This document shows positions 17,130-34,956 of a stretch of DNA of 41,494 nucleotides, in pieces. Position numbers and translations under genes: made by a program. Below the pieces are notes generated by a model. That model was given only the letters and a program-made list of their open reading frames with translations, was not told the origin of the DNA and did no database searches. Source of the stretch: a virus. How positions within the stretch are numbered: position 1 is the stretch's first letter; the number at the start of each line of letters is the position of its first letter. The stretch lies in the UHGV virus genome UHGV-1357485, one strand, 5' to 3'.

Positions 17130-17277
17130 GTTTCACTCCTGCTTTGGCTAGTCTGTAAACACCAACAAGGCGCTCTGCGAACGCCCTGTTATTTGCTGCG
17201 GCTACCACTAATCCCTCAGGTGAATCAGGGTGTCGAATCTCTTCTTTTTCCTGGTATTTCTTACGACGTTTTGTCAT
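17116..17277 (-). CDS. small basic protein (53 aa) between cII and the O-like gene
   Basis: ATG at 17277 preceded by AGGAG; stop overlaps the O-like start; hand-translated. Confidence 0.3.
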   Translation of the reverse strand: MTKRRKKYQEKEEIRHPDSPEGLVVAAANNRAFAERLVGVYRLAKAGVKHGRR

Positions 17278-17311
17278 AATTACTCCTGTGGATTGATCCA
17301 GTCTTTCTACA

Positions 17312-17590
17312 TCAGGCCTCGAAGAATTCGCCGTTCTTCGGGGCTTTTTCTTTTGTCAGCATTCTGGCTACTTTCTTAGCCAGTTCCGCCAACTCCTCGT
17401 CTTCAACACCCCATTCAAGAACAGCCAGAAGCATGGCCATCTTTGGGATAAAGCTGTCTTTCCATCGCGAAATTTGCGATTCATTAATCCCTAACGCGTC
17501 GGCAACCTTTCGCTGACCACGTACAGCAATTCGATTCAGGATGTTGCTTGTAATTGCATTCGCTTTCTTGCGAGTACTTGTAAGTTGCAT
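17312..17590 (-). CDS. cII: transcriptional activator CII (92 aa)
   Basis: ...SQISRWK...IPKMAMLLAVLEWGV... closely resembles lambda CII. Confidence 0.85.
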   Translation of the reverse strand: MQLTSTRKKANAITSNILNRIAVRGQRKVADALGINESQISRWKDSFIPKMAMLLAVLEWGVEDEELAELAKKVARMLTKEKAPKNGEFFEA

Positions 17591-17648
17591 ATGTAAGTAT
17601 TTCCTTAACTAATAAGAAGTTATGCGCATCAACTTATGCGCGTTGTAT

Positions 17649-17692
17649 TCCCGCATTTCGGCGGGAATGAGGACCATGGCTGTTAAAGAGCG
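17649..17692 (-). promoter_or_regulatory. nutR (boxA CGCTCTTTAA plus boxB hairpin)
   Basis: Between cro and cII on the minus strand; boxB is the reverse complement of the nutL boxB. Confidence 0.6.
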
Positions 17693-17698
17693 GTGTTA

Positions 17699-17893
17699 CT
17701 ATTTGTTTTTCTTGTTGCTTGGGAAAGGACGAACTTCCTCTCCAATCACACTGCCATCAGGCTTTACCGTAACCATAATGTTACGGCCTGCCAGAATGGC
17801 CTTGCTGATAGCGCACTGGATTACACCAAAGTCACTGGCTGCTTTAGCCTGTCCATGGATTTTGGCGTAATCGGCAAGTGTCATTCGAATCAT
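17699..17893 (-). CDS. cro: Cro repressor (64 aa from ATG 17893)
   Basis: [24 protein letters not shown]...VKPFPSNKK resembles lambda Cro. Confidence 0.85.
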
Positions 17894-17924
17894 ATGCACT
17901 CTCCGTTATTAACCATGAACAAAG

Positions 17925-17988
17925 AATACTACAGGTATTCAAAGCAATCAATACTCAGGGTATTTTTAGTTTAAGTACCTTAGCTATT
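17925..17988. promoter_or_regulatory. OR operator region (three sites) with divergent pR/pRM
   Basis: Three 15-bp near-palindromes of type AATAC-N5-GTATT at about 17925-17939, 17950-17964 and 17974-17988. Confidence 0.6.
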
Positions 17989-17999
17989 AGAATTAAGCT

Positions 18000-18716
18000 A
18001 TGGAAAATAAAAAATCACTGACGACAGAACAGCTCGAAGACGCTAAGCGGCTTAAGGCTTTGTATGAGTCAAAAAAGAAAGAATTGGGAATAACCCAATA
18101 CTCAATCGCTGATGAACTGGGTATCACCCAAGGAGCGGTAGGGCATTATCTTAATGGCAGAAACGCGCTAAACGTTGAGGTTGCATCTGGTTTTGCACGA
18201 TTGTTGCAAGTCTCAATTGCTGATTTTAGCCAGTCAATTGCTGCCAAGGTTGCAGAACAGGCAGAAAGCCTTAAGAGCGATGCCAACGTAAGGTATGCAG
18301 GGGAATACAGAGCAGGAAAGAGGTATCCGGTGTTAAGCAGTATCCAGGCTGGCTCGTGGTGTGAAGCATGCGAACCATACACCATTAAAGACATAGATGT
18401 TTGGCTTGAGTCTGACGCGCATATTCAAGGTAATGCGTTTTGGCTTAAAGTGGAAGGTGATTCAATGACGGCACCGGTTGGGTTAAGCATTCCAGAGGGA
18501 ACATTCGTTCTTTTCGATACCGGAAGGGAGGCGATCAACGGCAGCTTGGTCATAGCAAAACTTTCTGACTCTAACGAAGCAACATTCAAGAAGCTGATAA
18601 TCGACGGCGGAAATAAATACCTCAAGGGACTTAATCCTGCATGGCCTCTCGTGCCAATCAATGGAAACTGCAAGATTATAGGCGTTGCAATTGAGACAAA
18701 ACTAAGGCTGGTTTGA
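18000..18716 (+). CDS. cI: CI repressor (lambda-type, 238 aa)
   Basis: N-terminal HTH and C-terminal LexA/S24-type autocleavage domain (FWLKVEGDSM...FKKL...). Confidence 0.9.
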   Translation: MENKKSLTTEQLEDAKRLKALYESKKKELGITQYSIADELGITQGAVGHYLNGRNALNVEVASGFARLLQVSIADFSQSIAAKVAEQAESLKSDANVRYAGEYRAGKRYPVLSSIQAGSWCEACEPYTIKDIDVWLESDAHIQGNAFWLKVEGDSMTAPVGLSIPEGTFVLFDTGREAINGSLVIAKLSDSNEATFKKLIIDGGNKYLKGLNPAWPLVPINGNCKIIGVAIETKLRLV

Positions 18717-18733
18717 TCACGCAAGGGGCGATT

Positions 18734-19102
18734 ATGGTTGGAACCGCTATAGCAAGCTTTTTTGGGATGTTGGCAATCTCGACAATTTACGTCTTAGCGC
18801 ATGCTTTTATTGCGAAATCTCTATCAGAAAAAATAAGCCAGGCTTGGGCGCATAGATCAGCTCGTTTCATGATTCTTGTGATCATAGCAATACAAGGGAT
18901 ATCTGCATTTATCCTCTATGGATCAAGCTTATACCTATTGTATCAAGGCGCGACATTTACGCCTTACACCAGTGATTACGGAACTCTATACGATGGTAGT
19001 GAAGACATCACTGTGGCTTGGATCGTCTTTGGTTTATCTATGGCCGTGTCTGTTGTAGCAGACATCATTAAGGTAATTCTCGTCTTAACCTTCGCTGACT
19101 AA
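18734..19102 (+). CDS. lysogeny-operon membrane protein (about 122 aa, three predicted TM helices)
   Basis: Directly downstream of cI with AAGGGG before ATG 18734 (TTG at 18713 overlaps the cI stop); AT-rich; occupies the rexAB position. Confidence 0.5.
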   Translation: MVGTAIASFFGMLAISTIYVLAHAFIAKSLSEKISQAWAHRSARFMILVIIAIQGISAFILYGSSLYLLYQGATFTPYTSDYGTLYDGSEDITVAWIVFGLSMAVSVVADIIKVILVLTFAD

Positions 19103-19188
19103 CCCATAATCCCGGCAGCAATAGCTATCGGGATCCACTTCACATATCCCGCATAAAAATCACTGAACAAGCAGACAGCGAAAAAATA

Positions 19189-19273
19189 AATATCCTTTGT
19201 ATTCATTTGTTTATCATTATTTCATCAAAAATAAATACCTTGGGTATTTACACAATAAAATACCTACAGTATT
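19189..19273. promoter_or_regulatory. OL operator region (three sites) and pL
   Basis: AATATCCTTTGTATT, AATACCTTGGGTATT and AATACCTACAGTATT, same consensus as OR. Confidence 0.55.
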
Positions 19274-19321
19274 CTTTAGCCATCAGCAGGACGCTGGAAG
19301 CCAAACGGAACAGATTGGCAG

Positions 19322-19362
19322 GCTCTTTAACATTGATGGGATTGTCCCGCCGAAATGCGGGA
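19322..19362 (+). promoter_or_regulatory. nutL (boxA GCTCTTTAA plus boxB hairpin TCCCGC-CGAAAT-GCGGGA)
   Basis: Downstream of OL, upstream of N; same boxB as nutR. Confidence 0.55.
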
Positions 19363-19629
19363 ACCAAAGAGTAGTTGGCTTTGGGGTGTGGTGAAGCCAG
19401 CTAGTCACTGGCAAGTGCTTACCTACTGTTGAGCGGTGAAGCGCTCCCAACGCTAGCAATAGCGTGGACGAGATGGGGAGCCGCGGGCGATAAGGCCGCC
19501 ATAACGCGCACGTTGTCGCATGGAAAAATCGCTGGGGTGCCGGTTATACCCCTCCGAATGAGACTCAACAAGCTGGAGCTAGACTACCAGCCACCACACC
19601 ACCAAAGCTAATCATCTGAGGAACAGAAA

Positions 19630-19749
19630 ATGTTAGACATCATGACCAACCCAATTCTCGGTGGTTTAGTTACCACATTCGCCATCTGCTTCGGTTTCAC
19701 TATCTGGTCTGAAGTAGATGACTGGATGTGGGAACGCAAAAACAAATAA
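19630..19749 (+). CDS. small hydrophobic peptide (39 aa) in the pL leader
   Basis: GAGGA-N7-ATG; hand-translated MLDIMTNPILGGLVTTFAICFGFTIWSEVDDWMWERKNK; one predicted TM. Confidence 0.3.
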   Translation: MLDIMTNPILGGLVTTFAICFGFTIWSEVDDWMWERKNK

Positions 19750-19789
19750 TCATCGACACACAAGGATGTGCACCTACCCGGAGGTCAAC

Positions 19790-20062
19790 ATGACAGTAGT
19801 CATTACATATCTGGCTGACGATAACGCCAGATATCGCCGCAGAGCACGCAGACAGGCTCAACGTGAACAGGCAATGCAAGAACAGCGACTGGCGCGAAAG
19901 ATTGCGCTAAAGCTCTCTGGTTGCGTCAGAGCAGATAAAGCAGCATCACTCGGAAGCCTTCGCTGCAAGAAGGCAGATGAATGCAGTGGAAGTATTTGCC
20001 TGCCAAACGTAGCCATTTACGCGGCAGGCTACCGGAAATCAAAACAACTGACGGCGAGATGA
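19790..20062 (+). CDS. N: antiterminator N (P22 gene 24-like, 90 aa)
   Basis: GGAGG RBS; N-terminal Arg-rich motif NARYRRRARRQAQ; C-terminus ...LPNVAIYAAGYRKSKQLTAR resembles recalled P22 gp24. Confidence 0.75.
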   Translation: MTVVITYLADDNARYRRRARRQAQREQAMQEQRLARKIALKLSGCVRADKAASLGSLRCKKADECSGSICLPNVAIYAAGYRKSKQLTAR

Positions 20063-20078
20063 TAAATTAATTTGCTAA

Positions 20079-20660
20079 TTACTTGTTTTTGCCATGCTTA
20101 TCCTGAGCGATAAGTTCATCCATAAGACTGTCTTTCTTCCCAGCAAACCTAATGTAGCACTCATTTCTATAGCGTTCCGGGATAACAAAACGGTCGATTT
20201 CAGGATATCCAGTAGCAGAAGGTACCCGAATAAGAAGCCCTTTTTCGAGCAATGAGATTGCTTCAGGGCTTCCCTTTTCTGTCTTTAGCTGGTTATTAGC
20301 GGCTACAGCGAATGCCAAATACGCTCTTTCTCCAAGAGTTAACGAATCAAACAAATCTTGCACGTATTTCTCTTCTTTAGATTTGCGCTTCTGAGCAGCG
20401 AATATCTCAATTCTTTCAGTCACAGCGTGATAAGCGGAATTAACAACGCCGTTAAGCACATAGCTAACGCAAAACAACAGGATGTAATACATCCAGTAAT
20501 GAGGAAGGATTTCTGGATTATGCAGGTTTATCCATTCTTTTACGCTTACAGGCATAACAATAATCAATATGATCAGGATGATTAGCATATGAATCAACTG
20601 TTTAAGTGTCATTCCTTGCAGGAAAAAATGCATTAGTTCCTGCCACCATGAGTTGTTCAT
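20079..20660 (-). CDS. sieB: superinfection exclusion protein SieB-like (193 aa)
   Basis: Adjacent to N on the opposite strand as in lambda/P22; N-terminal TM segment; AT-rich. Confidence 0.55.
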   Translation of the reverse strand: MNNSWWQELMHFFLQGMTLKQLIHMLIILIILIIVMPVSVKEWINLHNPEILPHYWMYYILLFCVSYVLNGVVNSAYHAVTERIEIFAAQKRKSKEEKYVQDLFDSLTLGERAYLAFAVAANNQLKTEKGSPEAISLLEKGLLIRVPSATGYPEIDRFVIPERYRNECYIRFAGKKDSLMDELIAQDKHGKNK

Positions 20661-20873
20661 CGGCGTTTCTCTTTTGCTCTCTGTAGGGGTGAATAGAGTT
20701 TATCCGATTTCTCGCTGTAGGGGTACACGAGAACCACCGAGCCTGATGTGGTTAAAAGACAGGCATACTAATAAACACTGCACTGTGTATTCATTCCAAC
20801 GAGTGAATACACGGAGCAATGTCGCTCGTAACTAAACAGGAGCCGACTTGTTCTGATTATTGGAAATCTTCTT

Positions 20874-20901
20874 TGCCCTCCAGTGTGAGGGCAATTTTTT
20901 T
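20874..20901 (+). terminator. intrinsic terminator (tL-like) before the pL accessory genes
   Basis: TGCCCTC-CAGTGT-GAGGGCA hairpin followed by ATTTTTTT. Confidence 0.5.
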
Positions 20902-20913
20902 GACGGAGGATAT

Positions 20914-21867
20914 ATGAGTGAAGTAACAGATTTAGTTGTTATTGAAAAAGCAAATGCAATGACTGTATTTCAGTCTGCCGACCAGATTGAAGAAATCCTT
21001 CAAAAGGTTGAACGTGAAGTTATGTCCTTTGTGCCTGATATCACAACGGCAAAGGGCAGAAAGGAGATCGCTTCTCTGGCGTATAAAGTTGCGCAGACGA
21101 AAACATATCTCGATGGTCTTGGCAAAGACCTTGTTGCTGAACTGAAGGAAATTCCAAAGCTAATTGATGCTAACCGCAAGACAGTGCGTGATCGCCTTGA
21201 TGAGCTGAAAGCCAAGGCGCGCCAGCCTCTTACTGATTATGAGGAAGAACAGGCGCGGATTAAAGCCGAAGAAGAAGCTAAGGCAGCAGCTGAAGCTCTC
21301 GCAAAGCAAATTGAGTCTGACCATGAAATAGCTATTTTGATGGATCGCGAATTTGACCGCCAAAGAGAAGAGGCAAGACTCAAAGCGGAGCAGGAAGAAC
21401 GATTAAAAAGAGAAGCTGAAGAGAAAGCCAGAGCAGAAGCCGAAGCAAAGGCAAAAGCCGAAATTGAAGCAGCAGCAAGGCGAGAAGCAGAAGCTAAGGC
21501 CGCAGCGGAACGTGCAGAGCGTGAACGCATTGAAGCCGAGCAACGAGCACAGCGCGAAGCAAAAGAGGCAGCAGAACGAGCTGAAAGAGAAAAGCAGGCA
21601 GCAATTGAAGCAGAACGCAGAAAAGCACAGGAGGAGGCTGAACGAATCCGGCGCGAGGCTGAAGCAAAAGAGCAAGCCAGAATAGCAGAAGAAAAAAGAA
21701 TCAAGGAAGAAGAAGAGCGTAGAGCAAAGGATAAAGCTCACCGGAAAGAAGTAAATAACAAAATACTTGCTGACCTTATCAAGGTTGGCGCATCAGAAGA
21801 TGTTGCTAAAAATATCATAACAGCCATCGTAAAAGGCGAAGTATTCGCAACAAAAATAACCTACTAA
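20914..21867 (+). CDS. coiled-coil protein with A/E/K/R-rich TolA-like central repeat (317 aa)
   Basis: GGAGGA RBS before ATG 20914; about 150 aa of low-complexity helical repeats between distinct N- and C-terminal regions. Confidence 0.6.
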   Translation: MSEVTDLVVIEKANAMTVFQSADQIEEILQKVEREVMSFVPDITTAKGRKEIASLAYKVAQTKTYLDGLGKDLVAELKEIPKLIDANRKTVRDRLDELKAKARQPLTDYEEEQARIKAEEEAKAAAEALAKQIESDHEIAILMDREFDRQREEARLKAEQEERLKREAEEKARAEAEAKAKAEIEAAARREAEAKAAAERAERERIEAEQRAQREAKEAAERAEREKQAAIEAERRKAQEEAERIRREAEAKEQARIAEEKRIKEEEERRAKDKAHRKEVNNKILADLIKVGASEDVAKNIITAIVKGEVFATKITY

Positions 21868-34170: not shown

Positions 34171-34536
34171 TCACTCCGGCTTTTTGATATGTCGCTCGCA
34201 GAACTCAACAAGCCTGCTCATTAAGTAGCAGTAAGTCTCGTTGGCTCTTCCTGGTTCAACATCAACACCGACCCTTGAGCAGATATCGAATGCCATGTGA
34301 GCGCACTCATGGGCAATAGTAGATAGTTTGCCATTGAACACACCTATCACATGCAAAACACCATTCTCGCTGCTCATTGTATGAGACGCTCCGTTGGCAT
34401 CCGAGTCCTGCACGTCCACGCCAAGTTTTTGATGCAGGCGTTGCCATTCTGGAAAGTCTCTGCAAAACACAATCGTACCGCTCTCAAAGAGCGGTACGAG
34501 CATCTTTGGTACGTTTCCAATGTTAACTTTTTTCAT
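34171..34536 (-). CDS. hypothetical protein with HECAH (HExxH-like) motif (121 aa) at the P22 sieA position
   Basis: ATG 34536 preceded by AGGA; motif IAHECAHMAFD; follows the ejection genes on the late strand. Confidence 0.45.
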   Translation of the reverse strand: MKKVNIGNVPKMLVPLFESGTIVFCRDFPEWQRLHQKLGVDVQDSDANGASHTMSSENGVLHVIGVFNGKLSTIAHECAHMAFDICSRVGVDVEPGRANETYCYLMSRLVEFCERHIKKPE

Positions 34537-34566
34537 GGTATCCTGCGAAAAACTAAGGAGGTTGGT

Positions 34567-34956
34567 GTGAAGCAATTTCTTGCTGCTATGTTCTTATTCA
34601 TATCTTTTGGGGCTACAGCAGAGTGCTGGGTCGTTGGAGATATGCGCGGAATAAGCTATTCAGAGCGAAATAATTTCCATCCGGAAGAAGATGGTTTTAG
34701 TGGAACATTTATCATTAAGACAAGCGGTGAAGATGCCAGCATCACATATTCTGGGACGGATGCTGGCGGCATGGCTTACAAAGCATTGTCTAAAAACTCC
34801 ATCATAGGAATCGGCGCGAATGGCGAAACTCAACGAGTTATCGACTCATGGGTAATACATCCTAATGGAACAGTTTTAATGTCGAAAACCATTTCCGGTT
34901 ATGGAAATATGGATTCAACCAAAGCTTTTGTTGGAAAAGTAAAAAGAAAATGCTAA
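34567..34956 (+). CDS. secreted protein with signal peptide (129 aa, GTG start)
   Basis: AAGGAGG 5 nt upstream of GTG 34567; N-terminal K-then-hydrophobic stretch ending ATA-E (signal-peptidase-like). Confidence 0.55.
   Translation: MKQFLAAMFLFISFGATAECWVVGDMRGISYSERNNFHPEEDGFSGTFIIKTSGEDASITYSGTDAGGMAYKALSKNSIIGIGANGETQRVIDSWVIHPNGTVLMSKTISGYGNMDSTKAFVGKVKRKC

Follow-up and report, generated by a model that had tools for sequence, protein, structure and literature searches.

The open reading frame at positions 18734–19102 of the window (the whole 41,494-nucleotide stretch of viral DNA analysed here, UHGV virus genome UHGV-1357485) is hkaS, a gene already annotated in coliphage HK620. Its product, HkaS, is almost certainly a real membrane protein, and the explanation which best accounts for the data as a whole, proposed here tentatively, is that of a solo inner-membrane superinfection-exclusion factor belonging to the cI operon. 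Two elements of this picture are already known, namely the hkaS annotation in the HK620 record and the published idea of a "defence slot behind cI".

Identity, distribution and conservation of hkaS

The deduced protein is the same as AAK28867.1 of HK620, where the product is given as "unknown", and as AFH20797.1 of HK630; identical proteins are on record elsewhere as "HkaS protein" or "hypothetical protein". At the nucleotide level, the region 18600–19300 is 100% identical to HK620 (AF335538) and HK630, and 97.6–99.9% identical to HZ41, mEpX2, HK140, HF4s, vB_EcoP-611R6, phi296 and phi367, as well as to two Stx2c-converting phages. Identity to HK620 is 99% over positions 17268–19402 (offset +15599 to AF335538) and resumes at gene N (19779). 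Taken in its entirety, the window is P22-like and mosaic, and about 47% of an 8–32 kb stretch of it is common to HK620. Nothing distinguishes HkaS of the window from HkaS of HK620 and HK630: it is the same gene in the same place, between cI and tIMM/OL. Along its full length (residues 1–122 of 122), the protein matches the profile of phrog_6534, a family with no assigned function, with an E-value of 1.1e-78.

The coordinates and anatomy of the ORF (18713/18734 to 19102, plus strand) given in a preliminary description of the window agree with the ORF list, although that description had not linked the ORF to the HK620 gene. A TTG codon at 18713 does overlap the cI stop codon (TGA, 18714–18716), and the ATG at 18734 is indeed preceded by the ribosome-binding site AAGGGG at a spacing of 5 nt. 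Since the start M-[VI]-G is found at the equivalent ATG in all full-length homologues, each having its own AAGGA-type Shine–Dalgarno motif, the ATG at 18734 can be taken as the start codon and the product as a 122-aa protein. The same description overstated the base composition in calling the gene markedly AT-rich relative to cI: the GC content of hkaS is 41.7% versus 45.3% for cI, a small and unremarkable difference, and the GC3 values are 40.7% and 43.5%, respectively. The GC content of the window is 46.1%, and that of neighbouring 300-bp windows ranges from 38% to 56%.

Among 5426 complete E. coli genomes, hkaS was found in 146 (about 2.7%), always on the chromosome, Stx-converting prophages included; it was also detected in Salmonella, Enterobacter, and Hafnia. 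No hkaS locus was found in the GTDB species-representative genomes. The gene resides in strain-variable prophages.

All 80 copies of hkaS in IMG/VR are intact; they represent 35 nucleotide alleles, and the amino-acid changes between them are all conservative. In the comparison with an 82%-identical homologue, dN/dS was 0.15 for hkaS and 0.03 for cI; with homologues of 52–60% identity, pN was 0.27–0.33 and pS was saturated at about 0.8. The conservation of the Shine–Dalgarno motif and the ATG, the low dN/dS and the intactness of the IMG/VR copies identify hkaS as a real gene. Literature searches for hkaS, for exclusion, repressor and transmembrane genes of HK620, and for phages mEpX2, HK630 and HK140 returned no report of function, expression or phenotype, nor did they turn up a transcriptome that includes hkaS.

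The immunity region and the slot behind cI

The layout of the immunity region is given in Table 1. The preliminary description was right in placing hkaS in the rexAB slot, between cI and OL/pL, where lambda has rexAB. In the HK620 record the order is cI, hkaS, tIMM, OL3–OL1, pL, and nutL.

Table 1. Coordinates of hkaS and of the surrounding immunity-region features in the window
Feature	Position	Strand	Basis
cro, 66 aa, divergent from cI	17699–17899	-	Pfam Cro PF09048, E = 3.6e-26; HK620 annotation
OR1–OR3 operators with pR	17924–17999	.	Transferred from HK620 AF335538
Putative pRM	-10 TAGAAT 17988–17993 (6 nt before the cI ATG); weak -35 TTTAGT 17965–17970		Hexamers read from the sequence, analogy with lambda
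cI repressor, 238 aa (HTH_3 + Peptidase_S24)	18000–18716	+	Pfam E = 5e-24 and 8e-10; HK620 annotation
Shine–Dalgarno AAGGGG for hkaS	18723–18728	+	Sequence; equivalent AAGGA motifs in diverged homologues
hkaS, 122-aa three-helix inner-membrane protein (predicted)	18734–19102	+	HK620 identity, PHROG 6534, hydropathy/charge, AlphaFold2, purifying selection
Stable stem-loop, 7 nt past the hkaS stop	19109–19134	+	-13.7 kcal/mol, z = -3.3; no U-tract
tIMM ("termination of cI transcript")	19184–19214	+	Transferred from AF335538; folds weakly here
OL3, OL2, OL1 and pL	19211–19282	+	HK620 annotation; pL TTTACA-17-TATTCT found at 19247–19275

The gap between cI and hkaS is 17 nt, which leaves no room for a terminator, and a hairpin follows the hkaS stop codon, so that co-transcription with cI from pRM and pRE is the natural reading of this arrangement. 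The layout points to hkaS as the putative distal gene of the cI operon, and HkaS is very probably expressed together with cI in lysogens. By analogy with lambda, pRM plausibly lies next to OR2/OR3, with the transcript starting at or adjacent to the cI ATG; its hexamers were not called by a simple promoter scan. The stem-loop behind hkaS is likely to be the 3' end or a stabiliser of the immunity transcript. In diverged homologues, non-homologous hairpins occupy the same place after the stop codon, and none of them has a U-tract. A scan for canonical terminators revealed none on the hkaS strand, so the end of the transcript is an inferred one. The OL operator half-sites are kept in all diverged homologues, and an Rfam scan of positions 17500–20700 found nothing. 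Two further ORFs in this region were considered and rejected as probably spurious: a 65-aa ORF at 19197–19394 (plus strand), annotated as hypothetical in HK630 and phi296, spans OL, pL and nutL, and a 35-aa hydrophobic ORF at 19099–19206 (minus strand), convergent with hkaS, overlaps regulatory sites.

In all loci examined, which cover HkaS identities of 51–100% and include Salmonella, Hafnia-type, metagenomic and IMG/VR sequences, hkaS directly follows a cI gene of the same family encoding 238–240 aa, and a Cro of 64–66 aa is encoded opposite cI, while the N, replication and recombination modules vary. The block conserved among the 80 IMG/VR loci extends from about 17300 to 19400. The gene is present in 63 of the 64 loci whose cI is at least 99% identical, the 64th being a contig that stops 3 nt past cI. 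A cI of 87% identity precedes an hkaS of 51% identity, and in Salmonella the cI is 86% and hkaS 60% identical; the latter pair of values indicates that hkaS co-diverges with cI, evolving about four times faster at the protein level. Relatives of cI at 76–78% identity occur without hkaS. In L161, with a 76%-identical cI and the sole such locus read in detail, the slot contains a convergent gene for a 128-aa signal-peptide protein of phrog_2651. The lack of hkaS behind these cI relatives and the presence of other cargo in the slot mark hkaS as accessory cargo rather than a part of the immunity switch, and would fit a gene that is not essential. Together with hkaS, the immunity cassette has been recorded across genera, in HK620 (Lederbergvirus), HK630 (Lambdavirus), and phi296 (Traversvirus), and thus gives no hint of one target injection machinery. 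As to the tight linkage to cI, it could reflect mere adjacency, or lysogeny control instead of defence.

The interval between cI and N is a hotspot of mosaic diversity and of lysogen-expressed defence genes, with rexAB in lambda and bstA in the Salmonella prophage BTP1; lysogens have a highly active repressor promoter, and bstA is strongly expressed during lysogeny (Owen et al., PMC8585504). The bstA gene, like hkaS, lies immediately behind cI, and its strong expression presumably comes from the promoter of the repressor (PMC8585504). BstA differs in not being a small membrane protein, and HkaS has no PADLOC match. In E. coli LF82, the prophage Perceval carries behind cI a two-gene cassette for proteins of 340 aa and 168 aa, the second of them a transmembrane protein. 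Transcription of the cassette clearly exceeds the prophage background, and the gene for the transmembrane protein, 81-fold over this background in RNA-seq, is the top prophage gene in LB (PMC9928086). This cassette (CU651637.1, 1178432–1180797) appears RexAB-like in its layout; it is independent evidence for expression of the slot in lysogens, and it is not hkaS. Its transmembrane protein was considered as a possible HkaS and rejected, since the 168-aa product comes from another gene, one of a pair.

A phrog_2651 signal-peptide protein of about 125 aa is also encoded in the window itself, at approximately 34570–34956 (plus strand), inside the ORF 34351–34956. It lies between gene 16 and the mnt/ant block, which is the sieA slot of P22, and its homologue in L161 (3248–3634, minus strand) lies behind cI. 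The occurrence of phrog_2651 in both places indicates that the two lysogeny-expressed slots share cargo families. No P22-type sieA was found in the window by tblastn.

Membrane topology and comparison with known proteins

Kyte–Doolittle analysis gave three hydrophobic segments in HkaS, at approximately residues 3–27, 45–70 and 93–121, and AlphaFold2 predicted three long helices, in accordance with the three transmembrane (TM) segments that had been claimed for the protein from the sequence. The loop 28–44 contains four K/R residues, and the loop 71–92 contains four D/E and no K/R residues, which according to the positive-inside rule makes HkaS an N-out/C-in protein with three TMs: the N-terminus and the acidic loop 71–92 are predicted to be periplasmic, and the basic loop 28–44 and the C-terminus cytoplasmic. 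A cleavable signal peptide in TM1 (A-H-A at 22–24) was considered and rejected, as the protein lacks a basic n-region, the homologues do not conserve the motif, and in the predicted topology it lies on the wrong, cytoplasmic, face.

The AlphaFold2 model, obtained from seven sequences only, has a pLDDT of 92.3 and consists of three helices of 28–34 residues and a short amphipathic helix at residues 31–38, while the periplasmic loop contains a small beta-hairpin. Comparison of the five diverged lineages showed conservation to be highest in the cytoplasmic loop (53% of positions invariant) and lowest in the periplasmic loop (18%). Among the invariant positions are three residues within the bilayer, Q54, D110 and K113, as well as the sequence ILVLTFAD, with which the protein ends directly after TM3. 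This pattern is best explained if the constrained surface of HkaS is the cytoplasmic one, made up of the amphipathic LSxKIxQxWxHxxARF loop, the TM3 residues D110 and K113, and the C-terminus, which is invariant, the periplasmic loop being probably free to vary. Five database copies (P0004, P0005, P0007, P0008 and P0009) depart from the common sequence, with frameshifted N-termini in which TM1 is swapped for unrelated sequence, or with a cytoplasmic loop shortened by small deletions; the cause could be errors in sequencing or occasional decay.

HkaS represents a tiny orphan family. A word-indexed protein search matched 12 clusters, all with at least 52% identity, and when 1.84 billion cluster representatives were searched exhaustively with a profile HMM, two matched, one of them a 44-aa fragment. 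No Pfam family, holins and SieB (PF14163) included, was matched at E ≤ 1, and no defence family of PADLOC-DB v2 at E ≤ 10; the only match in the NCBIfam, Pfam and PADLOC scans was an insignificant one to lnt, far under the cut-off. A sequence-profile search of the PDB likewise gave no matches at E ≤ 10, and the fold search with the predicted model retrieved generic helical bundles only, with no Foldseek hits at E ≤ 0.001. The comparison of HkaS with RexB and with other prophage exclusion proteins, to which its position had drawn attention, brought out no detectable relationship: the hhalign probability was 0.7% for lambda RexB, 0.3% for P22 SieA, and 0.45% for the P22 holin gp13, and no PADLOC model was matched.

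Lambda RexB and HkaS are encoded in the same slot, behind cI and ahead of OL/pL, within what is in the case of hkaS the presumed repressor transcript, and both are small polytopic inner-membrane proteins, as far as HkaS can be predicted. However, RexB is 144 aa long, whereas HkaS has 122 aa and three predicted TMs. RexB has four TMs and needs RexA to act. In the locus studied here there is no RexA-like partner, since hkaS is followed by no other plus-strand ORF before OL.

Class I holins, such as lambda S and P22 gp13, are proteins of approximately 100–120 aa with three TMs in an N-out/C-in orientation, which is also the predicted architecture of HkaS. Unlike them, HkaS lacks a charged C-terminal tail and is encoded in the immunity operon rather than in a lysis cassette.

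P22 SieA, an inner-membrane block to DNA injection, is a small protein expressed by the prophage; it has three predicted TMs and carries its best-conserved motif on the cytoplasmic side (PMC10883804). HkaS is also small, has three predicted TMs, and is best conserved in its cytoplasmic part, but the SieA motif FxRYPxEAxxFNK (PMC10883804) is absent from it. The genomic contexts differ as well: sieA is located between genes 16 and 9 and has its own promoter, while hkaS is located behind cI, and the interval between genes 16 and 9 in the window holds other genes, not hkaS. The resemblance between SieA and HkaS is an anatomical parallel, not homology.

Possible function of HkaS

The exclusion or abortive infection (Abi) function suggested for this ORF in the preliminary description is plausible as an analogy of position alone. 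An exclusion role gains plausibility from the slot between cI and N, where defence genes expressed in lysogens are known to accumulate. An anti-phage role of any kind appears to us evenly balanced against its absence, and a block of phage entry specifically is judged less likely than not. HkaS is presumably produced at all times together with cI, under pRM once lysogeny is established and under pRE while it is being set up, and hkaS would be shut off upon induction. The protein would act alone in the membrane as a superinfection-exclusion factor, and may interfere with the passage or establishment of the incoming phage genome at the inner membrane, in the manner of the unrelated P22 SieA, HK97 gp15, and T4 Imm.

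For the characterised single small membrane exclusion proteins SieA, HK97 gp15, T4 Imm and Sie2009, a block of DNA entry has been reported or is presumed. This precedent, together with the absence of a partner gene and loops that are too short for a sensor, is why a block of entry is preferred here as the mechanism. The loops of HkaS are at most 22 aa long and leave little room for a cytoplasmic sensor domain; a gated channel of the RexB type would need such a sensor, and the entry block is therefore preferred over it. If HkaS is an exclusion protein, it joins the known polyphyletic assemblage of prophage-encoded small membrane exclusion proteins.

A different explanation, unlikely in our estimate and nevertheless deserving serious attention, is that HkaS is a lysogen membrane protein with no part in defence, which modulates a host inner-membrane protein (such as a transporter, a sensor kinase or FtsH), with consequences for host physiology, or tunes the establishment or induction of lysogeny. 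The logic of such tuning would resemble that of 434 Hex, or of the influence on proteolysis that has been reported for RexB. Many of the small membrane proteins of bacteria regulate larger ones. The strict co-inheritance of hkaS with one family of cI, cro and operators, while the flanks recombine, is in favour of this explanation, as are the zero matches of HkaS to defence models and the conserved cytoplasmic surface, which would be expected for contact with a conserved cytoplasmic partner of host or phage origin. However, the cI relatives of 76% identity that occur without hkaS indicate that it is not needed for the immunity circuit, and a rate of evolution about four times that of cI is more typical of accessory or conflict genes.

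It is considerably less probable that HkaS is a stand-alone Abi effector, oligomerising into a pore or collapsing the membrane potential in some other way once an infecting phage disturbs the membrane, i.e., delivering a RexB-like output without RexA. HkaS does share the rexAB slot; small residues abound in its TM helices, as do the invariant Q54, D110 and K113 lie within them, a pattern compatible with oligomerisation or ion conduction, and its predicted N-out/C-in topology with three TMs is that of class I holins. Yet the low hhalign probabilities reveal no similarity to RexB or to the P22 holin, the four-TM RexB depends on RexA, whereas no sensor is encoded here and the loops are too short to contain one, and the charged C-terminal tail typical of holins is missing. 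Finally, a spurious or decaying ORF devoid of function can practically be dismissed: although some database copies are frameshifted or truncated at the N-terminus and the family is very narrow, the dN/dS value, the conserved Shine–Dalgarno motif and start codon, the 80 intact copies with only conservative changes, the confident AlphaFold2 model from seven sequences, and the retention of the gene across four genera all speak against it.

A bolder version of the defence hypothesis, which we regard as rather improbable, would make HkaS the founder of a family orphan in both sequence and fold, providing single-gene, sensor-less membrane defence tied to one repressor type, either by keeping out the genomes of several virion types or by working as a self-contained Abi switch that depolarises the membrane. 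If so, 122 residues would achieve what lambda does with RexA and RexB. The space between cI and the left operator in lambdoid prophages is among the few places with a gene that is almost certainly made in every lysogen, and hkaS is a compact orphan occupant of this defence slot in HK620, a genetically tractable model phage. If HkaS excludes phages, it would represent a new minimal family of membrane exclusion proteins and offer a simple system for studying how a genome crosses the inner membrane; if it does not, it would be one more prophage membrane moron.

The exclusion factor proposed here would not be the only one in this prophage. Just beyond N, at 20079–20660 (minus strand), the window encodes a 193-aa SieB homologue (PF14163, E = 1.1e-25; phrog_1301) that is 85% identical to P22 SieB, so the prophage already has one recognised exclusion gene near the immunity region. 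The SieB segment is common to only 7 of the 80 hkaS loci.

Between nutL and N, the window contains a segment of about 376 bp (19403–19778) which is absent from HK620 and from all 80 IMG/VR hkaS loci, and which is present as a whole in only 6 of the 5426 complete E. coli genomes. The immunity regions of Sf6, HK544, HK446, HK633, mEp213, and mEp043 contain an unannotated sequence that matches the first 217 nt of the segment (about 56% GC) with 100% identity. The second half carries a 39-aa ORF with a single TM (19630–19749, plus strand) and the Shine–Dalgarno motif GAGGAA, with no match in NCBIfam or PADLOC. Further along, the early-left operon includes an ORF of 335 aa at 20860–21867 (plus strand), the product of which has a long, extremely charged centre rich in E, A, K and R (AEAKAKAEIEAAARREAEAKAAAERAERERIEAEQRAQREAKEAAERAEREKQ).
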